Below are positions 2,315-49,300 of a stretch of DNA of 56,842 nucleotides, piece by piece. The notes under the pieces are model-generated. The model saw nothing but the letters and a program-made list of their open reading frames with translations. It had not been told where the DNA came from and did not search any database. The position numbers and the translations under genes were made by a program. Origin of the DNA: an uncultured Syntrophaceae bacterium (GTDB lineage: Bacteria; Desulfobacterota; Syntrophia; Syntrophales; UBA2210). Numbering within the stretch: the first letter of the stretch is position 1; the number at the start of each line of letters is the position of its first letter. Location: the NCBI GenBank assembly GCA_964571315.1, contig CAZNBR010000003.1:1-56842 (forward strand). The letters run 5' to 3'.

Positions 2315-3358
2315 ATGGCAAATCGACAAGTAACACTGGACGTCAGCGACAACATCATCGCCGCTGCGGTTATGTCTCAGAATTTTTGGGCGATAAAGAA
2401 TCTGCGGCTCATTGAACCGCACGCCGCCGGGGACAACACATGCGTGGTTGTTAATCCCGGTGCAAATTACGTTCCCATCGACATTGGCGCTCATTGGTTT
2501 TTAATGGACTCCGCCGTAGAAGTTGACTCTGTTGACGATCTGGACACCGGCGCTCTGGCGGCGGGTACTGACTATTACGTTTATGCCTGTACGGACGGCA
2601 CAACGATTTCATTCCTGGTTTCAGCCAACTCAACCAACCCAACCGGCTTCGATGCTGCTCATTCCCGCAAGATCGGAGGATTTCACACGCTGTGTGTTGC
2701 TGTAGGGGCTATCGGTGGACACACACTTACCGGATACGTCGCTAATGATATTCTGCCCGCATCTGTGTGGTGTCTGAAGCACCGGGCAAAGACCTTGGTC
2801 AATGTCGGAATGGTGTATGACAGCGGGATCCAGAAGTGGGTGGACATATATATGGCCTCCGGAACAGGGACGGGTACAACCTCCGCCAACGGCGCGACCG
2901 CCTCCGACACCCGCGACTGGAATGACTTCGTGGATGATGGTCATGCGGTGGGTAAACGGCTACCGACAGATGCAGAATTCCAGAGATTTGCCGCGGGATC
3001 AAACGAAGAGACCAATATTTCAACAAGCGCAGACCCCGTTACCACTGGCGGACATTCCGATACGGCCGCTCGTCGAATGATCTCCAACATTGGGTGCGAG
3101 GACTGCTGTGGGGCCTGGAATCAGTGGCTGGATGAGCAGTCTGCGATGTACGATGATGCAGTTGCAGCGGGATGGTATGACCTGCCCGGTTCCAAAGGTC
3201 AATTATACCGTCCAGTGGACACAAATGACGTTAAGCTGATCGCCGGGGGCAATTGGGTCAATGCCGCGATTGCCGGTTCTCGGTGCCGGGATGCGGGTTA
3301 CTATCGCTGGACTGCGAATGCGGCTCTCGGCGCGCGCTTCGTTGCGGAGCCGTTATAA
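2315..3358 (+). CDS. DGR target 1: Mtd-like receptor-binding protein with C-terminal C-type-lectin/FGE-type fold
   Basis: Motifs GGFHTLC, WVDIY, GKRLPTDAEF, RRMISNIGCEDCCG and GGNW...GSRCR...GARFVAEPL. The 3' end is a VR matching the TR. Confidence 0.9.
   Translation: MANRQVTLDVSDNIIAAAVMSQNFWAIKNLRLIEPHAAGDNTCVVVNPGANYVPIDIGAHWFLMDSAVEVDSVDDLDTGALAAGTDYYVYACTDGTTISFLVSANSTNPTGFDAAHSRKIGGFHTLCVAVGAIGGHTLTGYVANDILPASVWCLKHRAKTLVNVGMVYDSGIQKWVDIYMASGTGTGTTSANGATASDTRDWNDFVDDGHAVGKRLPTDAEFQRFAAGSNEETNISTSADPVTTGGHSDTAARRMISNIGCEDCCGAWNQWLDEQSAMYDDAVAAGWYDLPGSKGQLYRPVDTNDVKLIAGGNWVNAAIAGSRCRDAGYYRWTANAALGARFVAEPL
3235..3348 (+). repeat. DGR variable repeat VR1
   Basis: 114-bp ungapped match to the TR with 13 mismatches, all at TR adenines (e.g. 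aac>gtc, aat>att, aat>gat, aat>ggt, aac>tac, acg>gcg, aat>gct, atc>ctc). Confidence 0.97.
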
Positions 3359-3376
3359 CACGGGATACGGCTCACG

Positions 3377-3394
3377 GCGCCGTGAATACGGCGC
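3377..3394 (+). promoter_or_regulatory. GC-rich DNA hairpin downstream of VR1/IMH (retrohoming recognition element)
   Basis: gcgccgt-gaat-acggcgc, a 7-bp stem with a 4-nt loop, ~30 nt after the VR. Position matches the BPP-1 hairpin/cruciform. Confidence 0.7.
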
Positions 3395-3437
3395 AAAAGG
3401 ACTGAGGGTTACAGGCTATGAAGTCAAATCGACCGAG

Positions 3438-3551
3438 GCTGATCGCCGGGGGCAATTGGAACAATGCCGCGAATGCCGGTTCTCGGTGCCGGAATGCGAA
3501 TAACTATCGCTGGAATACGAATACGAATATCGGCGCGCGCTTCGTTGCGGA
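3438..3551 (+). ncRNA. DGR template repeat (TR)
   Basis: Non-coding copy between target and RT, with 10 AAY codons in the target frame and 25 adenines before the terminal gcgga. It diverges from the VRs after gcgga (tacagg versus gccg), i.e. IMH* versus IMH. Confidence 0.97.
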
Positions 3552-3699
3552 TACAGGACTGCGGAAATGAGTAATACTCCTGGCTGGATTTCATGGCCTT
3601 GTCTCTGGAAATCCAGAGGCAAAACACATATCGGAGGCGTCGGGCAACCAGTAGCGCAAGCGAACCTTGTCCGTCGCATTTTATAAAACGGATAGAATA

Positions 3700-4728
3700 A
3701 TGAAACGACACAGTAACTTATATCAAGTAATCACAAGCGAAGAGAATGTGCGGGAATCCTGGTTGGAAGCCCGGCGGGGCAAATCAAGCAAAAGTGCAGT
3801 GCGTCGTTTTGAGCGGGATCTGGATCGGAATCTTCAGCAGATCCGGGAATTACTGATCAACAAAACTTACAAGCCATCTCCCTACACGACCAAGATGATT
3901 CATGAGCCCAAGACGCGGCTCATCTACATCCTGCCGTTCGCGCCGGATCGTGTCATCCATCATGTGTTGATGCGGGTAATCGAGCCGATCTGGGAGGGAT
4001 TGTTTATTTCCGATTCCTACGCCTGTATCAAAGGCAAAGGATTGCACGGGGGCAGCAGACGGACTATGGAGTTTGTCCGCAGGAATCGATATTGCCTGAA
4101 GATGGACATCTCGAAATTCTACCCGTCAGTTGATCACGACATCCTCTATGATATCATTCAGCGCAAGATCAAATGCGTTGACACGCTCTGGCTGTTCCGG
4201 AAGATCATCTACAGCATCCCGGACGGGAAGAATGTCCCGATCGGAAACTATACCAGCCAATGGATGGGCAATCTCTATCTGAACGAGCTGGATTACTTTG
4301 TCAAACATTCCTTGCGCGTCAAGGATTATGTCCGATACTGCGATGATTTCTGCCTGTTCCATAATGACAAAAAGCACCTGGCCCGGCTCGCTTCCGAAAT
4401 CGAAACATTCCTGGCCGATACCCTGGCTTTAAAACTCAGCAAGAACTCAGTTTTCCCCGTTACTCAAGGGGTTGATTTCCTGGGCTATCGACACTTTCCA
4501 ACCCACATACTGTTGCGGAAATCCACGACAACAAGAATACGCCGGCGGTTACGCAGATTGCCATCAGCACTAGCGGATGGTCACATCAGTTTTGAATATT
4601 TCCGGTCCTGCATCGCTTCCGTCAAAGGGTGGATGCGCTGGGCTAACACACACCATCTACGACTCGCCATGGAATTAGCGGCGCTGGAAAGGATTGTGGA
4701 AAATGGAGGAATCGCCAAAGCGGTTTAA
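3700..4728 (+). CDS. DGR reverse transcriptase
   Basis: Motifs EPKTRLI, DRVIHH, SYACIKGKG, KMDISKFYPSVDH, PIGNYTSQW (DGR-type SQ), YVRYCDDF and DFLGY. ~342 aa with no maturase or endonuclease domain, adjacent to the TR. Confidence 0.96.
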   Translation: MKRHSNLYQVITSEENVRESWLEARRGKSSKSAVRRFERDLDRNLQQIRELLINKTYKPSPYTTKMIHEPKTRLIYILPFAPDRVIHHVLMRVIEPIWEGLFISDSYACIKGKGLHGGSRRTMEFVRRNRYCLKMDISKFYPSVDHDILYDIIQRKIKCVDTLWLFRKIIYSIPDGKNVPIGNYTSQWMGNLYLNELDYFVKHSLRVKDYVRYCDDFCLFHNDKKHLARLASEIETFLADTLALKLSKNSVFPVTQGVDFLGYRHFPTHILLRKSTTTRIRRRLRRLPSALADGHISFEYFRSCIASVKGWMRWANTHHLRLAMELAALERIVENGGIAKAV

Positions 4729-5008
4729 AGATTTTGCCAAAGAGCATGTGCCACTGGATGGCGCGAAACTGAAAATTGACGATATATTGAATAAGGAAAT
4801 AATGGTGATCGGATTCCGAGTCAAAGATAGTAAGTTCATCAAGGCTAACGCACCGACATGCCTGACCATACAGTTCACGCTGGGTGATGAACGACACATA
4901 GCATTTACCGGGAGTCAGGTGTTGCTCGATCAATGCAGGTCCTACGAAACCGAGATCCCGTTTCTGGCCACAGTAAAGAAGGTGGATAAGTATTATACGT
5001 TTACGTAA
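4703..5008 (+). CDS. Small beta-rich protein overlapping the RT 3' end (candidate DGR accessory factor)
   Basis: 101 aa, overlaps the RT stop. Alternating hydrophobic strands (EIMVIGF, LTIQF, HIAFTGS, PFLATV, YYTF), unlike helical Avd. Confidence 0.7.
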   Translation: MEESPKRFKDFAKEHVPLDGAKLKIDDILNKEIMVIGFRVKDSKFIKANAPTCLTIQFTLGDERHIAFTGSQVLLDQCRSYETEIPFLATVKKVDKYYTFT

Positions 5009-5072
5009 TCGATGGGGATATTGGGATTAATGAATAATCTCTAAAATACTATACTGCGAAGGAGAACTATCA

Positions 5073-5501
5073 ATGAATCTTTTTACAAAAATTGAATTAT
5101 CGTTACTGCGGATTTTTGTGTATGCCATTATTTTGGCCCCTTTGTGCCTATGGGGAGTAAGAGAAAGCGTTGACGTGGAGCCTGTGGTGACAACATGGAA
5201 TATGTATATAACCCCTATAGCGGTGGGAGTATCCACTGCTGTGATAATGATATTTATCAGCCGCCTATTTAAGCGCCAGGATAGCAAGGACGAAGAAATT
5301 AAAAAATTGTCAGCGGAAAAAGAGACACTCAAGGAACAAAATATACATCAGTGGCGTGAAACATATACCGATACTCTATGTGCGATAAAGAATTCTGTGG
5401 ACAGGATTGAAACAGCCCTCAATGAAAAGGTTGACAAGGAGGATTGCATCAGGGAATCTGGAAATCAATGGAATGCTATTAATAAGTTAAGGAAAGCATA
5501 A
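5073..5501 (+). CDS. Membrane protein with coiled-coil tail (holin/lysis-associated)
   Basis: AAGGAG RBS, two hydrophobic segments followed by a charged helical tail, and position upstream of the endolysin. Confidence 0.6.
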   Translation: MNLFTKIELSLLRIFVYAIILAPLCLWGVRESVDVEPVVTTWNMYITPIAVGVSTAVIMIFISRLFKRQDSKDEEIKKLSAEKETLKEQNIHQWRETYTDTLCAIKNSVDRIETALNEKVDKEDCIRESGNQWNAINKLRKA

Positions 5502-6486: not shown

Positions 6487-6566
6487 AAACACTTGGACCT
6501 TTACCTGTGGTGAGTTTATTGCTCTATATATAGTTGATTATAAATAGTATTATACTAAAGCGCATA

Positions 6567-6612
6567 ACTCTTAATCAGTAGGTTCGGGGTTCGACTCCCC
6601 GGCGGCTCACCA
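6567..6612 (+). other. attP core: 3' half of tRNA-Lys(CTT)
   Basis: actcttaatcagtaggttcggggttcgactccccggcggctcacca contains the anticodon loop CTCTTAA, the T-arm GGTTCGAC and a CCA end. The 5' half of the tRNA is absent, and the integrase is adjacent. Confidence 0.88.
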
Positions 6613-6617
6613 ATAGT

Positions 6618-11648: not shown

Positions 11649-11895
11649 TAATTCGAGGAAAATGAAATATCTGGAGATTGTCACGATCGGCCAAGGTCCG
11701 GATCTGGCCAAGGGCATGCTGACTGTAACCATCGCATTGAAGGATGACAAGGGAGAATCATATTACACGCACCTGGTCACGCGAGACAATTATGCTCACT
11801 CAACCCGGAAGACTATAGAGCGGCTAAGTCGGGTGAAATTTCCGCCAGTGCCTGATTCTGGTAACGAAATTGTCAAAATCAATCAAACGAAATGA
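11620..11895 (+). CDS. Hypothetical protein
   Basis: ORF coupled to both neighbours (ATGA overlap with the next gene). Start uncertain. Confidence 0.5.
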   Translation: MSGDKMMSDDNSRKMKYLEIVTIGQGPDLAKGMLTVTIALKDDKGESYYTHLVTRDNYAHSTRKTIERLSRVKFPPVPDSGNEIVKINQTK

Positions 11896-12125
11896 AACAA
11901 ATAAAGATCAAACCCGGAATCGTCATTTTGTCCCCCTGGTACAACACCAGGGAGGCGGCGGCGCACTGCGGTATGGCCCGGTCGACATTCATGTATAAGG
12001 CGCATATCACGGGACTACCCAGCGCAGGCGACGTGAGGAATAAACGATACAAGGTTGAAGACCTGGACCGATGGATCAGCAATGGTTTTCGGTATCCGGG
12101 AATGGAGAATAGCAGCAGCGGCTGA
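11892..12125 (+). CDS. Excisionase-like / AlpA-MerR-type HTH protein
   Basis: WYNTREAAAHCGMARSTF...RYKVEDLDRWI. Confidence 0.7.
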   Translation: MKQIKIKPGIVILSPWYNTREAAAHCGMARSTFMYKAHITGLPSAGDVRNKRYKVEDLDRWISNGFRYPGMENSSSG

Positions 12126-12168
12126 ATGCCGTGATCATTAATAAGTTAAAAAAATAAGGAGGTCGGAA

Positions 12169-12876
12169 ATGAATTTACTGCCAGGACAAGATTACATTAT
12201 TACAGAAAATTTGACGTTAAAGGTCGAGGATTCGAAGGATCAAGGCGCAATAGGTGGATTTCACACACTGTGCGCTGATGTCGGAAATATTCCCGGTCAT
12301 CCGTTAAGCGGATTTTATGCCGGTGATCCGATACCATATTCGCTGTGGAATCAGCATCACCGGGCGGGATGTAAAAGCAATGCCGGAATGGTGTATGACG
12401 ACGTTCGAGATTTGTGGGTTGATATCTACCTTTTTTCTTCCGCAAACCGAAATATCATCCATGAAACATTGGAGAATTACAAGGATATCGGAATGAGGTG
12501 TGGGAAGCGGTTGCCCACCCACGAGGAATTCTCATCACTCGCCGAGGGCTCCAACGAATTGACTAATATCCGGGGAAGCAAATACACTCCCATATCTGGT
12601 GGAAATATCGATACCCAGGGACGGCGGATGATCAGCAATATCGGATGCGAGGACTGTGCGGGACTGATATGGCAATATCTGTTATCTTTAGATCCAGCCG
12701 ATCCCGAATATACGCTGTTCGCCGGGGGCTATTGGAACGATGCCGCGAATGCCGGTTCTCGGTGCCGGAATGCGAATAACTATCGCTGGACTGCGTATAC
12801 GAGTCTCGGCGCGCGCTTCGTTGCGGAGCCGCTTTTTCCGCGAGAACGACGCATACAAGAAAACAAAGAACTATAG
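12169..12876 (+). CDS. DGR target 2 (remote), stand-alone Mtd-like C-type-lectin-fold protein, copy A
   Basis: TAAGGAGG RBS. Shares GGFHTLC, GMVYD, WVDIY, GKRLPT and RRMISNIGCEDC with target 1, and contains VR2. Confidence 0.9.
   Translation: MNLLPGQDYIITENLTLKVEDSKDQGAIGGFHTLCADVGNIPGHPLSGFYAGDPIPYSLWNQHHRAGCKSNAGMVYDDVRDLWVDIYLFSSANRNIIHETLENYKDIGMRCGKRLPTHEEFSSLAEGSNELTNIRGSKYTPISGGNIDTQGRRMISNIGCEDCAGLIWQYLLSLDPADPEYTLFAGGYWNDAANAGSRCRNANNYRWTAYTSLGARFVAEPLFPRERRIQENKEL
12714..12827 (+). repeat. DGR variable repeat VR2 (copy A)
   Basis: 114-bp match to the TR with 8 mismatches, all at TR adenines. Followed by the same gccg IMH end as VR1. Confidence 0.95.
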
Positions 12877-13010
12877 AGCGAGTATCATCGCGCTTTTTCC
12901 TGCACCATTCGCAGACGAGGAGAGTCGGCATTGCTATTATACTCGCTATTTTTCAATCCGGGAGAGGTGTGTGAAATCCGCAATAAGTTAAAAAAATAAG
13001 GAGGTCGGAA

Positions 13011-13718
13011 ATGAATTTACTGCCAGGACAAGATTACATTATTACAGAAAATTTGACGTTAAAGGTCGAGGATTCGAAGGATCAAGGCGCAATAGGTGGA
13101 TTTCACACACTGTGCGCTGATGTCGGAAATATTCCCGGTCATCCGTTAAGCGGATTTTATGCCGGTGATCCGATACCATATTCGCTGTGGAATCAGCATC
13201 ACCGGGCGGGATGTAAAAGCAATGCCGGAATGGTGTATGACGACGTTCGAGATTTGTGGGTTGATATCTACCTTTTTTCTTCCGCAAACCGAAATATCAT
13301 CCATGAAACATTGGAGAATTACAAGGATATCGGAATGAGGTGTGGGAAGCGGTTGCCCACCCACGAGGAATTCTCATCACTCGCCGAGGGCTCCAACGAA
13401 TTGACTAATATCCGGGGAAGCAAATACACTCCCATATCTGGTGGAAATATCGATACCCAGGGACGGCGGATGATCAGCAATATCGGATGCGAGGACTGTG
13501 CGGGACTGATATGGCAATATCTGTTATCTTTAGATCCAGCCGATCCCGAATATACGCTGTTCGCCGGGGGCTATTGGAACGATGCCGCGAATGCCGGTTC
13601 TCGGTGCCGGAATGCGAATAACTATCGCTGGACTGCGTATACGAGTCTCGGCGCGCGCTTCGTTGCGGAGCCGCTTTTTCCGCGAGAACGACGCATACAA
13701 GAAAACAAAGAACTATAG
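13011..13718 (+). CDS. DGR target 2, copy B (identical protein)
   Basis: Translation identical to 12169..12876. Confidence 0.8.
   Translation: MNLLPGQDYIITENLTLKVEDSKDQGAIGGFHTLCADVGNIPGHPLSGFYAGDPIPYSLWNQHHRAGCKSNAGMVYDDVRDLWVDIYLFSSANRNIIHETLENYKDIGMRCGKRLPTHEEFSSLAEGSNELTNIRGSKYTPISGGNIDTQGRRMISNIGCEDCAGLIWQYLLSLDPADPEYTLFAGGYWNDAANAGSRCRNANNYRWTAYTSLGARFVAEPLFPRERRIQENKEL
13556..13669 (+). repeat. DGR variable repeat VR2 (copy B)
   Basis: Identical to 12714-12827. Confidence 0.85.
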
Positions 13719-13772
13719 AGCGAGTATCATCGCGCTTTTTCCTGCACCATTCGCAGACGAGGAGAGTCGGCA

Positions 13773-16316
13773 TTGCTATTATACTCGCTATTTTTCAATC
13801 CGGGAGAGGTGTGTGAAATCCGCGCAATCGGCGCCCAGGGGAAAAATCCCGGCTGGGAGGGTTTTGCCAGGTCGGTTGTCTCAGGATACTATGATTCTCC
13901 AGAGGCTTTCGAAACAGGGGCTGGAATTCTTGACAAGGCCCAGAGCCGCGGCGTCTATTTCACCATCAATCCCGGAAACCCTGCGCTTATTGCGCGGGCA
14001 GTCAATCGTTTAAAAATTCCGAAAAGCACAACACAGGACGCGGACATCGTCTGCATTCGGTGGCTGCCGATCGACCTGGATCCAAAACGACCCGCGGACA
14101 TTTCCTCGACGGAAACTGAGGTTCAGGCAGCAACGGCCGTCGGAAAAGAGATCGCCAACTGGCTGGAAGGTGATCTCGGCTTTGGAAAGGCGATCCGGGC
14201 CTATTCCGGGAATGGTTTCCACTTGCTCTATCGCCTTCCGGACCTGCCGAACAACGAAGAAACCCACACAATCATCGTCGCCGCGATGGCGGCAATTAAG
14301 ACCAAATATGACAGTGATACGGTGGATATTGATCCGGCCGTCGTGAATCCAGCCCGGATCTGGAAGTGCTATGGGACCACAGGAAGAAAGGGCGATCCCA
14401 CGACTGACCGTCCACACAGAAAATCACAATTATTCCCAAAACAACCCTCCGTTCTGGCCGACGTGCCAATTACAAACCTGGACACTTTGAAGAAACTTGC
14501 AGCGCTGGTCCCGCAGACTTCGACGAAGAGGAGTTCTCCGCAGGCTACTGCCGCGGAAGCGGCTTCTACAAAAACAGCCGGTGCCGTGCCTTTTAAGGAC
14601 GGCACGCTGGGACCAATCAACATGGAGGCATATCTGGGCCACTACGGCATCGGCTACACGACAAAGACAAAGGGTGCACAGACGCTCTATTGCCTCGATC
14701 AGTGTTTATTTAATCCGGATCACGACCAGGGCCAGGCCTCAATCATGACATCGCCGACCGGGCCGCTGATCTACCAATGTTTCCATTCCTCCTGTAAGGA
14801 CAAGCGGTGGAAGGATGCCCGGGCACGGATATCCGGTGACAAGCCTATATCGGAATTCTGCGCCGGATTTGACCCGAATTGGACACCACCAAAACAATCA
14901 GGAACGGGTGCTATGGCTGACATCCTTGTCCGATCGGAACTGTCCGTGCAGAGCACGGCGGCAGTGAAGGTACCCGAGAAGATGGATCCAGCGGAGTTCT
15001 TCGAGAAACGAGGGAAGCGGCCGGTATTCGTGCCGATGTATCTGGCACGGTATCTGGCCGCCTACCTGGAGCCTCTTGTCCATACTGCAGGTGGTTTCTG
15101 GCGCTACGAAAAAGGAGTATGGAAGCCTTTTGCAGACACTATTTTATCGCAAATCATGGTGGCTGTGATGAAAGAACGTGTGCAGGCAGACATGATGACA
15201 AATACCTTGAAGATTCTTCGGGGACTGATTAACCGCGAAGAAGATTCGTGGCCCAAAGACATGAACCTGATCAATGTGAAAAACGGGATGCTGGACATCC
15301 GGACAATGGAACTGATTCCACACGATCCAAAATACGGAAGCCGGACGCAGTTGCCGGTCAACTACAACGCATCGGCCTTCTCACAACAATGGTGGGATTT
15401 CCTCAAGGAGATCTTCCCGGAGGATGAAAATTCCGCGAAGAAGTGGCTCCTGCAACAGTTTTTTGGCTATTGTCTGCTACGCGACTGCCGGTATCAGAAA
15501 GCTTTGTTTTTGTACGGGACGGGCGCGAACGGGAAATCCACTGTACTATATTGCCTCCAGGCGATGGTCGGGAGGGAGAATACATCGTCACTTTCTCTGG
15601 CGGATCTCACGCAGCGTTTTAAAGCGCAATTCCTGCGCGAAAAATTGATCAATCTGGCAACAGAGACGAACACACGGGATCCCCTGGCCACTGAACTCCT
15701 GAAGGCAATCATCTCCGGTGATCCGATCACGGCGGAGCAGAAATATGGGGAGCAATTTCAATTTCGTCCATTCGCGAAGTTTATCACGGCAATGAACGAT
15801 GCTCCGGTGATCCCGGATAAGAGTTATGGATTCGGTCGAAGGATCATTGTGCTGACCTTCGAAAAACGCTTTACCGATGAGGAGATCAAGCCGCGGATGG
15901 CCGATTCCCTCATCGAGGAGATCGAGGGGATTTTCAATTGGTCGGTCGAAGGATTGAAGATTCTGTTGAAAAACGATGGGTTTCTTATTCCTGATTCAGT
16001 TGGTAAAGCTACAAACGATTTCATGGAAACGCTGAACCCCCTGCTGATCTTTGTAAATGAAATGTGTGCGGTCCATGACGCCGAATCCGTTCGGACCATG
16101 GACTTATGGGATTGCTATGCAGAATGGTGTGCCGACGGGAAGAACCGCCCTCTGGGCCGGAATCGCTTCCTTGACCAGGTGCGGCAAACCTTCCCACGGG
16201 TTAGCTCCGCAAAAGTGGGCGAAGCACGGGTGAGGATGATGGTTGGTATCGGCCTGACGGCACATGCCCAAACATGGACGGAGGAGAGAAAAGCGCGCTT
16301 CCGCAGGCGGGATTAG
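13773..16316 (+). CDS. Primase-polymerase (AEP-like) fused to D5/P4-type SF3 helicase
   Basis: N-terminal IDLDP and SGNGFHLLY motifs, a Cys/His cluster (CLFNPDH...CFHSSC), INVKNGML, Walker A GTGANGKS and RRIIVLTF. GAGGAG RBS before the TTG. Confidence 0.9.
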   Translation: MLLYSLFFNPGEVCEIRAIGAQGKNPGWEGFARSVVSGYYDSPEAFETGAGILDKAQSRGVYFTINPGNPALIARAVNRLKIPKSTTQDADIVCIRWLPIDLDPKRPADISSTETEVQAATAVGKEIANWLEGDLGFGKAIRAYSGNGFHLLYRLPDLPNNEETHTIIVAAMAAIKTKYDSDTVDIDPAVVNPARIWKCYGTTGRKGDPTTDRPHRKSQLFPKQPSVLADVPITNLDTLKKLAALVPQTSTKRSSPQATAAEAASTKTAGAVPFKDGTLGPINMEAYLGHYGIGYTTKTKGAQTLYCLDQCLFNPDHDQGQASIMTSPTGPLIYQCFHSSCKDKRWKDARARISGDKPISEFCAGFDPNWTPPKQSGTGAMADILVRSELSVQSTAAVKVPEKMDPAEFFEKRGKRPVFVPMYLARYLAAYLEPLVHTAGGFWRYEKGVWKPFADTILSQIMVAVMKERVQADMMTNTLKILRGLINREEDSWPKDMNLINVKNGMLDIRTMELIPHDPKYGSRTQLPVNYNASAFSQQWWDFLKEIFPEDENSAKKWLLQQFFGYCLLRDCRYQKALFLYGTGANGKSTVLYCLQAMVGRENTSSLSLADLTQRFKAQFLREKLINLATETNTRDPLATELLKAIISGDPITAEQKYGEQFQFRPFAKFITAMNDAPVIPDKSYGFGRRIIVLTFEKRFTDEEIKPRMADSLIEEIEGIFNWSVEGLKILLKNDGFLIPDSVGKATNDFMETLNPLLIFVNEMCAVHDAESVRTMDLWDCYAEWCADGKNRPLGRNRFLDQVRQTFPRVSSAKVGEARVRMMVGIGLTAHAQTWTEERKARFRRRD

Positions 16317-30387: not shown

Positions 30388-30849
30388 ATGTTGAGATCTG
30401 ATGTTTTAATTGCACTGCCGCTGCATCTTGCGGTTGACTATGACGATGCGGCCGGGATCGACTGTGACGCTGCCGCGGTGGACAAGGGAAGTTTTGTCAT
30501 TCCCTACCGCTGCGAGGTATTTCTCGCCGGGGCCGTGGTCTGTGAAACCTGCGCAGGCGGAACGACCACCCCCATCGTTGACTTCGACCTGCGGCCAACT
30601 GCGGGCTCCGACGCGAGCAGGGGAGCGGCCGACATCGCGCACCTGATCCTTTCGACAACGGCAGCCGGGAAGGTGATGTACGACCGGGCGGCTTTGGGAA
30701 CGGTGCTCGAACCGGGCGAGGAGGTCGTCGTCGAACTCAAAGCAGCCGCGACCGGTGGTAGCGCGGCGGGACACGTCAAACCGTTTCTCCTGGTCAAGCA
30801 GATCCCCGAAGTTCTGGGGAACCTGGCCGATATGGTCGAAACTGCATAA
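30388..30849 (+). CDS. Capsid decoration-like protein, paralogue 1
   Basis: Follows the capsid gene, beta-rich, highly similar to the next gene. Confidence 0.6.
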   Translation: MLRSDVLIALPLHLAVDYDDAAGIDCDAAAVDKGSFVIPYRCEVFLAGAVVCETCAGGTTTPIVDFDLRPTAGSDASRGAADIAHLILSTTAAGKVMYDRAALGTVLEPGEEVVVELKAAATGGSAAGHVKPFLLVKQIPEVLGNLADMVETA

Positions 30850-30897
30850 TAATGCACTGAGGGGACAGTGAACCTGTCCCCTCATAAGGAGGCACAC

Positions 30898-31368
30898 ATG
30901 ATAAAAGATGACGTTTTGATTGCTTTACCGCTGCATCTGGCGGTTGATTATGACGATGCTCTGGGGATAGACACGGACCAGCCCGCGGCCGATATGGGGA
31001 CGTTCATCGTCCCATTTCGATGCGAGGTGTTCCTTGCCGGCGCTGTGGTGACTGAGGTGTGCTGCGGGGCCGATACGACTCCGGAAGTAGACTTCGATCT
31101 GCGACCGACAGCAGGGTCCGACACGGACAGGGGTGATGCCGACATCGCGCATCTGGTTCTATCGACTACCGCAGCCGGGAAGGTGATGTACGACCGGGCG
31201 GCTTTGGGAACGGTGCTCGAACCGGGAAGCGAAGTCGTCGTCGAACTCGCGGTGGCCGCAACCGACGCAGGAACCAGCCTTCAGACGGGCCATGTCAAAC
31301 CATTTTTACTGGTCAAATGTCTCCCCGAGGTCCTCGCGAATCTGGACGACCTGGTCGAGACGGCGTAA
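30898..31368 (+). CDS. Capsid decoration-like protein, paralogue 2
   Basis: TAAGGAGG RBS and ATG at 30898. Shares DVLIALPLHLAVDYDDA, RCEVFLAGAVV and GKVMYDRAALGTVLEPG with paralogue 1. Confidence 0.6.
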   Translation: MIKDDVLIALPLHLAVDYDDALGIDTDQPAADMGTFIVPFRCEVFLAGAVVTEVCCGADTTPEVDFDLRPTAGSDTDRGDADIAHLVLSTTAAGKVMYDRAALGTVLEPGSEVVVELAVAATDAGTSLQTGHVKPFLLVKCLPEVLANLDDLVETA

Positions 31369-40315: not shown

Positions 40316-43300
40316 ATGCCTGAATCTACTTTTGATTTCGTCGATGTCGTCCGGAAAAGAAATGCTGGTATTTTTTCCCAAGAAACCCAGAATCCCGCCG
40401 CAAATGAAACGCCCGCGGCTGAATCTACTTTTGATTTCGTCGAGGCCGTCCGAAAAAGAAACGCCGGTATTTTTTCCCAAGAGAACGATTCCGGCAGTGA
40501 AAATAAGCCGAAGCCCCCCAAACCACGCGGTATGGTTGCAGAAACCGTCTCCGCACTGGCATCCGGAGTGGTCGGTACCGGCGAGGCTGTGGCGGGAACG
40601 GCGGAGATGATCGGTCTGCCCGGAGCGGGAACGGCGCGGGACTATCTTCAGAATCTCCAGGAAAGCGAAGTCCTGAAACGCCCGGATTACCTTACAGAAG
40701 GGACGGTATGGGAACATCATGAACGCTTGGGCGACTGGCGCTGGTGGGTTCGCAGCGTCGGCGAAAACCTTCCAAATATGGCTGCGATGATGCTGCCGGG
40801 ATATGGCGTCATGCGTGCAGCACGGGCGGCAGACTGGGGAGTTAAGGCCATCCGCGCCGCTTCTCTGGCAGGCTCGTGGGCCGGATCCATGACGGTGGAA
40901 GCAGGAAGCGCATACACCCAGGCAAAACAGGAAATGACACAGGACGGGGCCTATGACGCCGACACCATAGAGCGCATCGCCACCGTGGAAGGTCTGGCAG
41001 CAGGAACTGTCAACAGTCTTCTCGAGCTTCTTCCATTCGACAACCTGTTTCTGAAACAGGCAGGCGCAGACAGGCTGATAAAGCGCTTTGTCCGGCAGGC
41101 ATTTTTAGAGGGTTCGACGGAATCAGCCCAGGAGGCCGTCAATGTTCTGGTGGAAAAGCTGGGGCATAAACCGGAGCAGGAACTGACCGACAACATCGGC
41201 CGGATTCTGGAGTCAGGCATCATTGGCGGAGCGTTAGGAGGCATCGCCGGAGGAACGATTGGAACCAGCGTCCACAAGGCCCAGGTCAAACAGTACAACG
41301 ATCTGGCCGATCAACTTGCCGTCAAGGATATGGTCTTTGCCCTCAAGGATGAAGGGATTTCCGATGAGGACATCTCCCTGCGCCTGGACACCCGGATCAA
41401 CGAGATCCGGACGAAACTCGAAGAGACACCTCCGGGGGCCGACGTCATTACCGGAGGAACCGAAGTCAAGGATATAGCTCAACAAACGATCATTCCCGAA
41501 GTGAACGCAAAAGAGATGGTCAGTTATCTGCTGTATGGAGACGGTAAATATACGCCGCCCCCGGGAATATTCGGCAAAACCGAAACCAGGGCGAAAGAAA
41601 AGGATGCACCGACGCCTGCCGTCAAAACGCAAACAGACCCCGGCTCGGGCGCGCTTTTATCCGGGCCGGCTGCGGGGAAAGACATTGCGCTGGAAGAACC
41701 TCTGGCACAGACAATCGATCAGGTAAGGTCGGCAGAAAACAGGAAGAAAGGAGAGAACCTCTTCGACTTGAGCCTTTCCGACCTGAATGATGAAAATCAA
41801 CAGGCGCTTGAAGAGGCGCGGAAGGCAAAAATTGCCCGCAGAGATGCAGAGGAACAGGCCGCGGCGTCGGAAGACATGCAAGCCCGGAAGATACAGATCG
41901 ATCAGGCCATGGCGAACCGGGACACCTTGCGATCTCAACTCGCGGGCGACGATCCGGCAAAGCAGAAGATCTTCGACGAGACATTCAGCCTTTCTGAAAA
42001 ACGGCTGGTAACGGCCATCGCCGCCTCTCCCGCGGACACACAAAGCCCCGGCCTGGGTCTGATCATCACACCCGACGACAGGGGACTGTATCAGTTGAAC
42101 GGCCAGCCTGTTGATCTCGATGCCATGCGCCCTCTTCTGATAAAAGCCCGGATCGACTCCATCGATGCCAAACGGGAACAGGATATCCGTGACCGGGAAT
42201 CAAATATCCTGAGGGAGGAACGAAACAGGAAACTAAGGGCGGTAACCTATGCCCGAAAAACGTTATCCTTCTGGCCTGCACAGCGACCGTCGGACCAGGA
42301 CATCGCTGTCCTGCAGGAAGAGGCAAGCCAGGGCCGGCTGCCGGAAGACGAAAAAAAGGTTCTGGAAATAATTCTCCAGACGCCCGCAGTCGCAAAGACC
42401 ATCCCGCAGTCGCTTCAGATACTGGGAATTAAATCGAAAAAGACTCCCGTTACAGATGAAGGAATTATATCGGAGGAAGAAAATAAGGACCATGTCAGTC
42501 CGGAGATAGCCACAGAAATAGACATGCAGCACCGGTACCTGCTGAGCCTCATGGAAAGCCAGCTTCAAAACGCAGGCACTGCGGGCCTGGTCGTCCGCCC
42601 CGATGACACGTTTCAAAGAGTAACTGCCGGCGTGGACTGGCTGACCGATGTTAATAAACAGGGAATGTCCCTATCGAAGGACGATGCGCTTACCGTGATC
42701 AAAAAGGCGCAGACCGGCGCAGGCATGACGGAAAAACAGAAAGAAGTTTATGACGCGATCGTTGCCGCAGCATCTGAACGCATCCCCGGCCGGGTCCTGG
42801 AAGAACCGTTCTGGGCGGAAAAGGGGTTTTACCCCGTCCGGGATAAACAGATCGCCGTGAAGGATCTTCTGGAGGGGGACCGGTTTGTCATTGCCGGTGA
42901 AGAATTTACCGTTACCGATATCGACGACCAGGGGAACGTTACCCTGAAAGACGGCACGATCCGGAAAGTAAAAGACGGCACGATCATCAGGGGCGTCGAT
43001 TATTTAAACCAGACGGAGGAAGCAACGGAGTTTAGCCCCGGCAGCAGTGTCCCGGAAACGGCAGCAGAACAGGAGAAACAAGACCAGATTCAAGCACCGG
43101 AAGAAACAGCGAAGGAAGTCACGGCCACGGAGGAAGCAAAGCCTGGACCGAAGACGGGCGATGTTCTCACAGACGACGAGTTCGATGCACTGGCGAGGGA
43201 AGCGCTGGCAGAGATGGAGAAAAAGACGGTTGATCAGGCCGGACCCGAACTGGAAATTAATATCACAAAGCAGACCAGCGGGGTATGGAAAGATGGATAC

Positions 43301-46300
43301 CAGGCAACCGTAAAGGCAGGACCGCATGAAGGGGTTGTCGGTTTCGGACATACCCCGGACGATGCACGGTACGAAGCCGAAAGATCAGTCAAGGATCGTA
43401 TCGCAAAGGGCATCGAGAACCTGCCGAAGAAAACTGCGCCGAACCGGGGTGTAACAACGGCAACCGGCATGAAGCCTGTCACGGCCGCAGTCGCAAAAAA
43501 AGAACCGGCAGAGACAAAGGCATCCGAATCTTTAAAGGAGAAGGCCGAGGGCGCGGCGTTTCAGAAGGAAGATCGCGTTGTATTAAAATCCGGGCGACAT
43601 GGGACGATCAGTAAAGTCGATACGATAGTCATGCAGACGATGTTCGGAGGCAGTCGAACTGTCGACCATTACTATATGGTGAAAATGGATTCCGGTGTGG
43701 AGCTTTCCGCGAGTGAAAAAGATATCACCCGTGAAGTAGGACCCGCACCCACGGCGATTCCCGATATCAATGTTGATGGCGGATTCAAGGAGCCCAGTCA
43801 TGTGCTCTACACCGTAACCTATTCCAAACAGCGGGCAAGGGAGAGCGATGCGGCGGCGCAGCGGGCAAGAAAACCGGAAAACATCCGGGATGCGAGGTCC
43901 CGGGCGGAATCGGCGCGACAAAAAGCCGTGCTATACCAGGAAGCATTCGATGCATGGGCCGCGAAGTATCCGGAGGAGGCGAAGAAATATCTGCCGGAGA
44001 AACGGGCGCAGAGTCAGGGAGTTGCGATCGCGACCGCACAGAGACCGCCCGCCATGGCGGCCACCGTGACCGGGGCACAGAGCCTGGCTGACTTGGGTCT
44101 GGTCGTTACGAAAGGCGCAACCAACACAGGCAAGACCGTATGGAACGTCTCCGGAAACACCAAGGCACATTCAGAGACGATCAAGCGGGCGGGCGGGCGC
44201 TGGTACGGGCCGAAGAAGGTCTGGAGCTTCTACAACGGCGATCCGACGGCGCAACTCCAGGAGGCGCTGGGGATCAAAAAAGACATGATCAAGCCTGCCG
44301 CGTCTCTGGGAAAGGCCGCATCGGAGGTCGCCAAAGGCGTGGCCTCTTCCTATGACGCGATCGCGGAGATCATGAAGCGGGCAGGCAAGGGTCCGATCAG
44401 CATGATGGGCGGCGGCGTCTTCGATGAAGAACTCTATCAGGCGATCAAACCACACCTGCAGGCGACATACGTCCACTTCCGCGCGGCGGCGATCGAAGTC
44501 AAGGAGTGGATGAAGGAGACGGTCAGCCAGTTCACCGCACGCGGATTCGAGGCCCAGGCGATCATCCCGTATATCAAACGATTCTACATGGAGGTGACGG
44601 AAAATGACTTGACAAAAGGCGCGGCCGCCGTTACATTACATACAAAGGAAGGAGAAGCCGGCCATGAAGAAGGAAAAGGAATTTCTCGTGGTGAATCCCC
44701 ATCAGGAACTCTGGCGGTACTGGCAGGAACGCCTGGACTGGATGCTGGAGAACTATCCCGAACGGGTGAAACAACTCTACCAGTCGGGGAAACTGAAGGC
44801 GTATCTGGACAGAAAAGCAGCAGTCGCCTACAAAATGATCTGCAACCTTCTCGACAAGGGGAAGAGCCGGGAAGAGGCCGACGAAGTGGCGAGCCAGTAC
44901 ATCCTGTCGCCGCCGGACGGCCCGGCGTTCCGGGACAACCCGCCGGAGCCGCTGCCGGAGAAACTGGAAAAGGAAATTCAGAAGTGGGCGGACAACCTGC
45001 CCGTCGATCCCGACAACCCAACGGAGATCTGGGTGTAAACACCCGCATCGAACCTGCCGACGTCCTCTTCCATTCCGGGAAGGTAGCCCGGATCAACGCT
45101 AATATCCGCGCCATTGAATTATCAAAAAAACTCGTCACAGAAAAACGCGCCGCAACACCTGCGGAGCAGAAGATCCTTTTGCAATACTCCGGATGGGGCG
45201 CCGTAGCCCAGGACGTTTTTAACCCCGAATTCGCAACCTACATTCAGCATCACGATGAAAATCCCGAGCACTGGCGATACAGAAACCCGGCCTCCTATTT
45301 CAATACGGCCGAGGCCGAAAAGTACGAAGCATGGGAAGCCAAGTATGGGCGGAAACTCCATCCGTTGCTGGGCGGAATATTGACTGCGGAGGAGTGGAAG
45401 TCCGCCGAGGCCTCGACGCTAAACGCCCACTATACGTCGAGAGAGGTAATCGAGCATGGGTTATGGGGCTCGGGGCGCAGACTCGGATTCGAGGGAGGAA
45501 GGGTTCTGGAACCTGCGGCAGGGATCGGTCATATCCTGGGCTTAATACCCGCCGACTTCGCCGGACGGGTTCAACTTCAGGGCGTGGAACTTGACAGGAT
45601 GAGCGGGCAGATTCTCTCCCAGCTCTACCCGCAGGCCGATATCCAGATCACCGGCTTCGAAAAAGCGCAGGGTATCCCCGACAATTCCGTGGACCTGGTC
45701 ATCTCCAATTTTCCCTTCGGGAACTACCCGATCACCGATACTGCGCACCCCGCCTATTCCGGCTGGTCGATTCACAACTATTTCTTTGCCCGGTCCGTTG
45801 ATGCGCTCCGCCCCGGCGGTGTCGTAATCGCGATCACGTCGCGCTACACGATGGATTCAACGAAAAACGGGAAGGCGCGTGAACTCCTGGCCGACAAGGC
45901 TGACCTGGTCGGCGCGATACGCCTGCCAAACAATGCCTTCGGAAAGAACGCCGGAACGGATGTTACGACGGACATCATCATTCTCCGGAAAAAGACGGCA
46001 GAAGCCTATCGGGACAGGAACGCATGGAGGACCACCGCACCAGTCAAAACGATGGATGGAACGGATGTGTCGATCAACGAGTATTTTGCGCAGCACCCCG
46101 AGATGGTCCTTGGGAAGCACTCCATGGCCGGGACGATGTACGGAGGCAAGGAAGAATACACACTTGCCCCCGATGATAGCAGGCCGCTGACAGAACAGAT
46201 CGACGAGGCCGTCGTCCGGCTGCCGCAGGGGATTTTTACCGCAGAGAACGCCACTGAACCGGCCGCGATACAGCGGGCGGAAGCGGGGACCAAAGCCGGG

Positions 46301-49300
46301 ACCTTTGTCCTGAAAGATGGCACGCTCAGTTATGTGAATAACTCCGGCGTCATGGTTGCGCCTGAATGGGCGGCGGAACGGAAGAAGGTTCTCCAGGCGG
46401 CTTCATTTATCTCCGTCCGGGATATGGCCGGGAAGCTGATCATGACGATGCAGCAAGAGGATGCGACTACGGAAGATATCGCTGAACTCCAGCGAAAACT
46501 GAATCGCGACTATGACCGCTACCGGCAGAAGTATGGAGCGTTTAACGAAAAACCGAGCACATTTCTTGCCGACGACGTGGAGTTTCCCTTAGTCCTGGCG
46601 CTGGAAAACATTGTAAAAAAACCGGTTACCTATGTTGTCGGCAAAGGCAAAAACAAAGGAGAGACACGGACCCGCAACCAGGATATCTTCACGAAGGCGG
46701 ATATCTTCACGAAGCGGACCCTCTTTCCATTCTCCGAACCGGTAACGTCGGAGAATATCGAAGATGCGGTGAACGTCAGCCTCACCTACAAGAACCATAT
46801 CAGCCCGGATTATATCGCCGCACTCCTGGGGAAGGACACGGTTGCGGTCCAGGCCGAACTGATCGAGAAAGAACTTGCCTTTCTGAATCCGGCCAACGGC
46901 TTGCTGGAGTCTCGCAGCGAATACCTTTCGGGGAACGTCCGGGAGAAGCTTCGGATTGCCGAGGAGCAGGGAGCAAAGAAGAACGCGGCAGCGCTCCGGG
47001 CCGTACAACCCCCCGAGCTGACGATCGACGAGATTTATTTTCGTCTGGGGTCGGAATGGATACCTGAGGCGGTGATCGACGGCTTTATGGCGGAAAAGAT
47101 GGAGGGCCGGGCTACGGCGACGCTCGCCACAGTAAAGGTAGGCGAAGACGAGGTCAGCCGCTGGACGGTCAATGACGCCGGCAACTGGAACAGGAACTCA
47201 CCAAATTACACCGTGTGGGGCTCGGAAGGCCGCTCCGGGACACAACTGGTGGAGGATTGTCTCAATCTTCATCGAACGGAGATTTATGACCTTATCGATG
47301 AAAAACGGGTGAAGAACCAGGCAAAAAGTCTTAATGCTCAGCAGAAACAGAGAGAGATTCAGACGGCGTTCAAGGAGTATGTGCTGGAGCACACCAGCCA
47401 TGCGTCGGCCGTTGCCGCGGTTTACAACCGGGAGAAGAACAACTATGTCGTCCGGCAATATGACGTTCCCGGGATTGATCATTATCCGCACGCAAGCCAT
47501 CTGATCACCCTGCGCGCCCACCAGAAAGGCGCGGTCAGCCGGGGCCTTCAGGGAAGCACAGTCTTTGCCCATGCCGTGGGAACGGGGAAAACCTACATGT
47601 ACGCTACGCTTGCGATGGAACTTCGCAGGACCGGCCAGGCGCATAAACCGCTGATCGTAGTTCAGGGATCCACGGTGAACCAGTTTGCCGGCCAGGCAAA
47701 GAACCTCTATCCTGCCGCACGGATTCTCTGCCCGTCTAAGAACGACCGGGCAAAAAGCGCACGGCGGGCATTGTTGGCTCGTATCGCGACCAACGACTAC
47801 GATATGATCATCATTCCTCATTCGTTTTTCGATGATTTGAATGTCAACCCCGAACGGGAGGCGGCATTCATCGAAGAGCAGTTGGAGGAGATCAAGGCCG
47901 CGATTCTCGAACTCGGTGGAGATATCGATAAGCCGAAACGCGGAGATGCGCCGACGGTCAAGCAGCTTCACGCAATGCTCAAGCGCAAGGAAGCCAGGCT
48001 GGAAGCCCTTAAAGACTCCGCCCATGGAATTGATACGATCTATTTCGACGAAATGGGGATTGACGCCGTCCTGGTCGATGAGGCTCACCACTACAAACGG
48101 GGCGATTTCAGCACAAAGATGGGAAACGTCAAGGGGCTCGACCGGGGCGCCGCGGCCAAATCCTTCCGGTTCCTGATGAAAGCGCGCGCAGTCCAGGAGA
48201 AGACCCGCGGGAAAAACATCTACCTGGCGACCGGGACACCGGTATCGAACACGACGGCAGAACTCTGGACGCTGTTGCGATACGTACGTCCGGACCTTCT
48301 GGCAGAATTCGGCGCGGGACACTTTGACGGTTTCGCATCGATGTTCGGCGACACGACACGGACACTGGAGATGACCGAGACGGGCGAGTTCAAGGACATC
48401 GAGAGATTCAATAAATACGTAAACGGACCCGAACTGATCAAGATGTGGCAGACGGCGGCCGACGTGATCCTCCAGGAGGACGTGCCCGGCTGGACGAATA
48501 TGATCCCGAAGCTGAAAGGCGACGGCATCCAGTCCGTGGCGATTCCGCGGTCCCAGGAACTGGCCGACGAGATCGAACGGATCCGGCAGGAACGCGCGGA
48601 GTGGAACAACCTCTCGGGAATGGAGAAAAAAGAGCTGTCCCATGTTCCTCTTCTGCTTTTCAACCGGGCAAAACAGGCCGCGATAGACCTGCGTCTGGTG
48701 CACGCCGATGCGGCTGACAATCCAGACAGCAAGACAAACCGGGTAGTGCAGGAGGTGTTCAATCGCTGGGAGGAAAGCCAGGAGGTCCCGGGGACGCAAC
48801 TGGTCTTCGCCGATACATACCGCGGGCCGAACGGGTTCAGCCTCTACGACGATATCAAAAAGAAACTCGTCGGCATGGGAGTGCCTGAGACCCAGATCGC
48901 GAATATCACGGAAAACAAATACAACACCGATGCGACGAAAGAGTCCCTTTTTGAAAAGATCAATGCGGGCGCGATCCGCGTTGTGATCGGCTCTACCAGC
49001 AAACTTGGGATTGGAGTCAATGTTCAGGAGCGACTGGTCGCAATTCATCATGTGGATGCACCAATGCGGCCGATGGATTTCGAACAGCGAAACGGCAGGA
49101 TACTGCGGCCCGGAAACACAAACCAGGAAGTGGAGGTCCTCGCCTATGCTGTGATCAATACCCTCGATTCGGTGACCTACGACCGGCTCCAGAAGAAACA
49201 GAAGTTTATAAACCAGCTCCTTCGCGGGAAGCTGGAAGGACGAAGCTTCGATGATCCAGCGGACGAACTCCAGTTCACCTTTGAAGACCTGATGGCCGCC

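Follow-up and report, generated by a model that had tools for sequence, protein, structure and literature searches.

The window analysed in this study is contig CAZNBR010000003.1 of assembly GCA_964571315.1, from an uncultured Syntrophaceae bacterium, taken at its full length of 56,842 nucleotides (nt). Near its start lies a diversity-generating retroelement (DGR), comprising a template repeat (TR), variable repeats (VRs) in target genes and a reverse transcriptase (RT). The TR and its VRs differ at adenines only, the RT and the main target are homologous to those of a known DGR, no avd gene accompanies them, the RNA around the TR shows covariation, and a small gene, orf104, is linked to the RT. 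The cassette consists of the following features, for which lengths of proteins are given in amino acids (aa):

2034-2312, + strand: orf98, a small acidic protein accompanying the cassette
2315-3358, + strand: target gene 1, coding for a 347-aa tail protein of the Mtd-like kind; its 3' end holds VR1
3235-3348, + strand: VR1, at the 3' end of target gene 1; differs from the TR at 13 positions, every one a TR adenine
3377-3394, + strand: GC hairpin following VR1; stem of 7 bp, loop GAAT; seen in the sequence and in the DNA fold
3438-3551, + strand: TR, 114 nt, with 26 adenines and 10 AAY codons
3700-4728, + strand: DGR reverse transcriptase, 342 aa; Pfam RVT_1; phrog_1423 at E 5e-124
4703-5008, + strand: orf104, a predicted OB-fold protein of ~101 aa, starting inside the last RT codons and overlapping the RT stop

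An ungapped comparison of TR and VR1 revealed 13 mismatches (7 A>G, 3 A>T, and 3 A>C), each of them at an adenine of the TR, as the initial annotation had counted. The probability that 13 of 13 sites land on the 26 adenines among 114 positions is 2.4e-10 (hypergeometric); the corresponding value for the eight of eight adenine mismatches in VR2 and VR3, two further repeats described below, is 2.8e-6. The ten AAY codons attributed to the TR were found when it was read in the frame of the open reading frame (ORF) 2315-3358, and the 25 adenines reported earlier agree with our total of 26 when the A that ends GCGGA is not counted. The initiation of mutagenic homing sequences of VR (IMH) and TR (IMH*) part after GCGGA, as described, continuing with GCCGTT in VR1, GCCGCT in VR2 and VR3, and TACAGG in the TR. 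The hairpin at 3377-3394 reads GCGCCGT-GAAT-ACGGCGC with a loop of 4 nt, which confirms the 7-bp GC stem, and VR1 thus has both the IMH/IMH* divergence and the GC-rich inverted repeat. VR2 and VR3 have the same GCGGAGCCG end as VR1, but weak hairpins. By eye, relatives too carry GC-rich hairpins of differing sequence between VR1 and TR (3349-3437 in the window). The RT motifs noted before were present as PIGNYTSQ and RYCDD, and are invariant in 26 of 26 aligned relatives. All DGR hallmarks tested were present, in line with the signature of mutagenic retrohoming that the initial annotation had recognized; VR2, VR3, and the lack of avd are additions to it. A promoter scan of 3300-3760 gave no promoter-like site on the + strand.

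Judged by its IGxxxSQ and YxDD motifs and by its nearest solved relative, itself a DGR RT, the enzyme belongs to the DGR type. This relative is bRT of a Bordetella phage (8ub7), matched over residues 2-325 at E 3e-55; the next best match is at 3e-20. Target 1 matched Pfam mtd_2nd (E 2e-25), phrog_11262, a tail protein (E 2e-60), and Mtd of phage BPP-1 (1yu1; E 1e-13), while its Pfam match to FGE-sulfatase was weak (E 0.0028, below the cut-off). Given these matches, target 1, with VR1 at its 3' end, appears to carry a variable domain of the C-type-lectin/Mtd-like kind.

The cassette resembles the DGR of Bordetella phage BPP-1 (mtd-avd-TR-brt; AY029185) in several respects. The RT is homologous (36% identity by tblastn) and the target is homologous to Mtd; the VR lies at the 3' end of the target and is followed by a GC hairpin; the TR is located just 5' of the RT; the RT gene is overlapped at its 3' end by a small ORF; and the cassette is close to a phage attachment site. 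In contrast to BPP-1, no avd is found between target and TR, where the gap from the stop (3358) to the TR measures 79 nt. Furthermore, comparison of Bbp4 and Bbp3 of BPP-1 with orf104 and orf98 by hhalign gave no similarity (probability 0.1-0.2). Among 27 window proteins compared, only the RT, Mtd, and primase matched BPP-1; classification of the window as a BPP-1-like phage was accordingly dropped.

Two further targets lie several kilobases downstream of the cassette:

12169-12876, + strand: target gene 2, 235 aa, between a helix-turn-helix (HTH) gene and the primase gene
12714-12827, + strand: VR2; 8 of 8 mismatches at TR adenines
13011-13718, + strand: target gene 3, an exact copy of target 2 in the second unit of a tandem duplication
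13556-13669, + strand: VR3, identical to VR2; 8 of 8 mismatches at TR adenines

Target 2 is paralogous to the C-terminal portion of target 1, with which it shares 46% identity (residues 113-347). The identity of VR2 and VR3 is explained by a tandem duplication of 842 bp with two exact copies (12140-12981 and 12982-13823), each including the whole short target gene. No further TR copies were found in the assembly beyond the TR and VR1 to VR3. Two relatives hold a single copy of the short target at the same site between the HTH and primase genes, and their remote VRs differ from their own TRs exclusively at adenines (18/18 and 10/10 mismatches). The short target of L098 looks frameshifted. The paralogy of targets 1 and 2 is what one would expect if the repeats were plain paralogous sequence or products of gene conversion instead of retroelement products. 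Against this stand the 21 of 21 differences from a non-coding TR copy that fall on adenines, and a DGR-type RT 148 nt downstream of the TR; we regard such an origin as having next to no chance of being correct.

The 842-bp duplication may be a very recent event or an assembly artefact. For this question, and for the variation described below, contigs, not raw reads, of four lake-water sequencing runs were compared with the window. In run X1, one contig is unbroken over 12139/12140 and another over 13823/13824, no contig matched 12842-13258, and no contig across the junction 12981|12982 was found among the matches listed, which leaves the reality of the duplication unsettled. Given how k-mer assembly behaves, the unbroken X1 contigs at the outer edges argue that the junction is rare or absent in this run.

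The initial annotation had proposed recent activity from the lack of non-adenine mismatches. The eight of eight adenine mismatches in VR2 and VR3 support this proposal, and beyond the mismatch spectrum of the window it now gains three additional lines of evidence, from the mismatches in related loci, from a TR change copied into VRs, and from the lake-water contigs. Related loci (32) were scanned for TR/VR pairs: 16 had full pairs, 15 had no pair at the seed threshold, and one yielded a 28-nt piece at a contig end. A missing pair at the seed threshold does not equal absence, as the pair of locus L024 was recovered by a looser scan. In the 16 loci with full pairs, 247 of 258 mismatches were at TR adenines; these loci are kin, and some are duplicates. 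The TRs of loci L003 and L004 (RT 91% identical), L004 being the closest relative, agree with the window TR at 113 of 114 positions, the lone change, at a non-adenine base, being G to C at TR position 49. The VR1s of both loci and the remote VR of L097 have C at this position, the window VRs have G. As the changed base was copied, TR information has been written into VRs since the lineages split.

A contig of run X4 (record 32; 941 nt over 11855-12789) showed 14 differences from the window. Eight of the 14 were located: one lies outside the VR and seven in VR2, all seven at TR adenines and two of them restoring the TR base. Hence the sister-lineage TR variant and the adenine-site differences in VR2, the latter seen in contigs, both attest transfer of information from TR to VR. 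The best-matching run may be the window's own source sample and is therefore not independent support. In addition, all four runs contained a short contig of higher depth (up to 29) resembling part of the TR (3454-3534), with eight differences and unrelated flanks. This contig probably stems from a further, related DGR in these waters and represents its TR or VR.

Taken together, we hold with considerable confidence that the locus is a complete and recently active DGR of a temperate phage, of a variant that lacks Avd. Several observations count against this. The closest solved relative of the RT, bRT, is known only in complex with Avd, which is absent here. The population evidence consists of assembled contigs only, the X4 contig having a depth of 4 and six of its 14 differences being unplaced. 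If the duplication is real, the identity of VR2 and VR3 means that neither copy has received a retrohoming event since. Finally, the DNA fold lacks a strong GC hairpin at VR2 and VR3.

The absence of avd from the contig, the identity of VR2 and VR3, and signs of activity that come from sequence comparison would also suit a fossil DGR, in which the VRs were diversified in the past and the element has since died, for example through loss of Avd. However, the sampled RTs without a neighboring Avd, as a group, retain intact RTs and adenine-only TR/VR differences, a TR substitution was copied to VRs after the split of the window and L004, and VR2 varies between samples at adenine sites only, with no non-adenine change among 21 differences. 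A dead element is thus very improbable.

The lack of Avd was examined beyond the cassette. The whole assembly was searched in six frames with PF05635 and PF22296 (E ≤10), which gave nothing on the window contig and matches only on contigs C156 and C205. Pfam searches of the ORFs near the cassette revealed neither Avd nor HRDC, no acidic ORF of 160-169 aa lies beside the cassette, and none of 91 ORFs adjoining more distant RTs matched Avd. The arrangement avd-TR-RT of a BPP-1-type cassette (Wu Architecture B) is consequently not present here. The matches on C156 and C205, to the 23S rRNA IVP/Avd family of PF05635, are strong (E 1e-40 and 6e-30), and an Avd supplied in trans by the host could be sought in these two proteins. 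Yet their genes are found among polysaccharide and ParA-like genes without an adjoining RT, the proteins score under the bAvd family cut-off or fail to match that family, and the pairing of contig and host is unproven, with only 77% identity between the tRNA-Lys(CTT) region of the assembly and the attP-like site. Supply of Avd in trans therefore seems even more remote than a dead element.

DGRs without Avd have been published. In the survey of Wu et al. 2018 (PMC5758913), as outlined there, 75 of 372 DGRs have no accessory genes and one lineage lacks avd, and the authors proposed that such elements evolved retrohoming independent of Avd. The window cassette shares with Architecture A1 and the avd-lacking Lineage 3, as defined in the sections of that paper devoted to them, the order target-TR-RT without avd or HRDC. 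It differs from them in being accompanied by a conserved OB-fold gene and a second small gene. The core is an ordinary phage DGR of the Avd-less variant. No published account of how retrohoming works without Avd was found.

The TR is embedded in a structured RNA, supported by strong covariation, the elements of which are:

3413-3425, + strand: 5' strand of a long-range duplex, upstream of the TR, pairing with 3587-3599
3546-3679, + strand: structured spacer RNA between TR and RT, with covariation in alignment A4
3548-3557 with 3579-3586, + strand: helix P1, taking in the last TR bases
3587-3599, + strand: 3' strand of the long-range duplex, directly 3' of P1
3600-3621, + strand: variable hairpin of the spacer RNA
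3618-3637, + strand: conserved single strand of the spacer RNA, GGCAAAACACAUAUCGGAGG
3637-3647 with 3667-3677, + strand: long stem of 11 bp, ending 23 nt 5' of the RT start

The TR-RT spacer of 148 nt is strongly conserved. In alignment A4 (22 sequences), 94% of the cells were paired and compensatory changes occurred in 21 of 27 pairs. None of 500 shuffles scored as high, and slid controls were 33-50% paired; as the structure was taken from the same alignment, the test favors it somewhat. The 13-bp duplex bracketing the TR showed compensatory changes in 9 of 13 pairs (20 sequences) and was recovered by RNAduplex in 13 of 13 loci. RNA model R1 detects non-seed loci, always just 5' of their RT, while it matches nothing in BPP-1 at E ≤1. 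Rfam gave no family at gathering scores over the whole window, and around the TR only a chance snoRNA match (E 0.9).

For the BPP-1 RNA, Handa et al. (bioRxiv 10.1101/2023.10.23.563531) describe, in the parts of the preprint that deal with its architecture, a cPRT Stop duplex, a Thumb Ring, and a bRT-binding stem. Compared with that description, the elements of the window appear in the same order, namely a TR-bracketing duplex, a long single strand, and a long stem before the RT. The site of the Avd-binding stem-loop in the RNA so described is occupied here by P1 and its loop, and the likeness is confined to the order of elements.

A further companion of this RNA and RT is orf104. Among 35 loci with an RT of at least 42% identity, 32 have an intact homolog directly after the RT, as does BK063673.1. 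The three exceptions are L016 and L024, which retain truncated 5' remnants, and L031, where the contig ends 286 nt past the RT. None of the 45 loci with an RT of at most 39% identity has orf104. In the reverse direction, a search seeded with four orf104 proteins returned 68 loci. For 64 of these, 1050 nt or more of upstream sequence was available, and an RT was found alongside in 60 of the 64. The RT ends within 150 nt of orf104 in 52, lies within ~450 nt in seven (in six of which the alignment stops short of the RT end), and lies downstream in one. Two of the four loci without an RT are matches of only 15-22 residues. Across 400 other genomes of the phylum, the orf104 profile gave two weak matches, and a profile search of 1.84 billion representatives yielded 1095 orf104-family proteins at E ≤0.001. 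Ten longer library proteins were scanned, and four proved to be DGR-type RTs with a C-terminal OB domain; their mutual identity is below 50%, and one fused RT is 40% identical to that of the window. As a separate observation, residues 1-90 of protein P0038 form an asparagine-rich stretch resembling a TR read in frame, which runs into an RT and then an OB domain.

The AlphaFold2 (AF2) model of orf104 (pLDDT 86) points to an OB fold. Residues 29-104 align best with the OB domain of RuvBL2 (VIA, Z 6.7) and also with single-stranded DNA-binding protein (SSB) chains (Z 5.7, root-mean-square deviation 2.3-2.5, 66-68 residues). With orf104, a score of 0.92 was given by an Atlas cluster, 44% of whose members carry Phi29_Phage_SSB. 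By contrast, Foldseek against the PDB returned nothing at E <0.001, and no sequence family was matched in Pfam or PHROG. The predicted fold is hence like that of OB-fold single-stranded DNA-binding proteins (SSB, PriB, RPA domains), with no match to their sequence families. The mean isoelectric point (pI) of the family is 8.1 (25 homologs), which is at most suggestive of binding to single-stranded nucleic acid. A complex prediction for RT (A6) and orf104 (A1) scored 0.00, which is no verdict and weighs neither way.

On balance, it is somewhat more likely than not that orf104 is a nucleic-acid-binding protein acting together with the RT of this Avd-less lineage. A more far-reaching version, which we put forward tentatively and consider somewhat short of an even chance, is that a ~100-aa OB-fold protein replaces Avd as an obligatory RT cofactor throughout a large Avd-less branch of bRT-like RTs, being translationally coupled and sometimes fused to the RT and binding the spacer RNA or the nascent cDNA. 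On the other hand, orf104 could be an ordinary phage gene, for example a replication SSB or a late gene, which neighbors the RT by ancestry, with RT and RNA or host factors being sufficient. The DGRs without any accessory gene (75 of 372) in the part of the Wu et al. survey (PMC5758913) cited above would fit this view. So would the middling fold matches (Z 4-6.7 to many OB domains), a range that possibly reflects just a common arrangement, and the overlap and kinship of the orf104- and RT-seeded sets, by which the linkage is not independent evidence. The RT-OB fusions could be gene-calling or frameshift artefacts, and a distant homolog, L091, is part of a 296-aa protein with no RT within the 3.2 kb examined. 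Moreover, the orf104 of L016 and L024 is truncated and the VR mismatches of L024 are still mostly adenine-only. These two loci amount to natural knock-outs, the reading frame ending after ~13 codons in L016 (~1290-1340) and after ~30 codons in L024 (~5010-5140); in L024, the remnant is followed by a 401-aa ORF on the opposite strand, perhaps an insertion. However, orf104 remains at the RT stop codon even where the genes that follow differ between loci. Its place is in the tail and lysis part of the genome, well away from the replication genes, and neither the RT beside 60 of 64 orf104-seeded loci nor four fused proteins of such divergence are expected of a bystander. We therefore consider mere neighborhood unlikely, though clearly more plausible than the alternatives discussed for the DGR itself.

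Literature searches for an OB-fold or other downstream accessory gene of DGRs returned no description, bioRxiv supplements and subscription journals being outside their scope; in the text of Roux et al. 2021, the words 'Avd' and 'accessory' are absent. The nearest candidate is PAG1 of Wu et al. 2018, for which the relevant passages of the paper give three proteins of ~115-122 aa adjoining the RT. By eye, these resemble orf104 in that they are of similar size, contain an FT[GN]S motif, and have YYxF/E at the C-terminus; they differ in being located just upstream of the RT, whereas orf104 follows it. The evidence for PAG genes is called tenuous by the authors themselves, in the same passages (PMC5758913).

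A second gene, orf98, travels with the cassette. Homologs were found by phmmer in 23 related loci, where they lie just 5' of the target or just after orf104 (alignment A2, 18 sequences). The protein is acidic (mean pI 5.7) and modelled with high confidence (AF2 pLDDT 93). Fold searches were uninformative, the best VIA match having Z 5.4 and the best BFVD match, to an uncharacterised protein, E 3e-3.

Combining these elements, a working mechanism for an active Avd-less DGR can be outlined. An RNA of ~3413-3679 would be transcribed, and the 13-bp duplex flanking the TR, stacked on P1, would close the TR into a loop. The RT would bind the conserved single strand and the long stem just 5' of its own gene and copy the TR into cDNA, misreading adenines. 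The cDNA would then take the place of VR1 in the gene of the Mtd-like tail protein and of VR2 and VR3 in the free-standing variable-domain paralog. By analogy with the Bordetella phage system, cDNA synthesis may be primed from within the spacer, the TR-bracketing duplex may serve as its stop, and the target may be recognized via the shared GCGGAGCCG end and the hairpin.

The window represents the whole of contig C3 in an assembly of 312 contigs and 2.63 Mb. Since its first 596 bases equal its last 596, the contig is circular-like with a length of ~56.2 kb. It encodes an integrase, a holin, an M15 endolysin, a terminase, a portal, a capsid protein, and a 4774-aa protein, a gene content from which we infer a temperate tailed phage whose host is a bacterium with peptidoglycan. 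The 4774-aa protein is a single ORF (40316-54640) after the structural genes, with matches to ResIII/SNF2-like helicases and a RadC-like JAB domain. A gene made up of tandem repeats of 369 nt, with sub-repeats of 45 nt (DTDLPAVKTVVDD-like units), spans the contig ends (1-1791 and 56247-56842); its true repeat count is uncertain, as the 596-bp overlap falls inside it. More direct repeats occur at 30388-31264 and 40320-40482, with a spacing of 510 nt at 71-83% identity and of 99 nt at 92%.

Beside the integrase, at ~6561-6613, lies an attP-like 3' half of tRNA-Lys(CTT), where metagenome contigs show tRNA-like loose ends. A search for the corresponding attB gave no exact match in the assembly, the best reaching 77%. 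As the assembly's own tRNA-Lys(CTT) region matches only to this extent, placement of the phage in this genome bin is unconfirmed. A virus record with the stated host Methanosarcinales (L083; BK063673.1, 34472-44207) carries the same cassette as the window, with target, spacer RNA (R1, 102 bits), RT, and orf104-like and orf98-like genes. The stated host of this record contrasts with the peptidoglycan endolysin encoded by the window phage.

The DGR itself is textbook, and its activity signature is a useful confirmation and no surprise. What the locus adds is that it typifies a populous Avd-less variant with a well-defined RNA and an RT-linked gene, hitherto unrecognized, for a predicted OB-fold protein. 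Few cases are documented like that of the conserved second target among the early genes, where a phage diversifies a non-tail paralog of its own receptor-binding domain. The RT is near enough to bRT, for which a structure with Avd and RNA has been solved, for residue-level comparison, and yet Avd is missing. The parts open to testing are the RNA at 3413-3679 with its covariation-supported helices, the RT, and the linked OB-fold protein, and a compact RT with a partner of 100 aa may be of interest for DGR-based targeted mutagenesis. If the proposed role of orf104 is true, an OB-fold cofactor would constitute a second, structurally unrelated route to the assembly of a DGR ribonucleoprotein.

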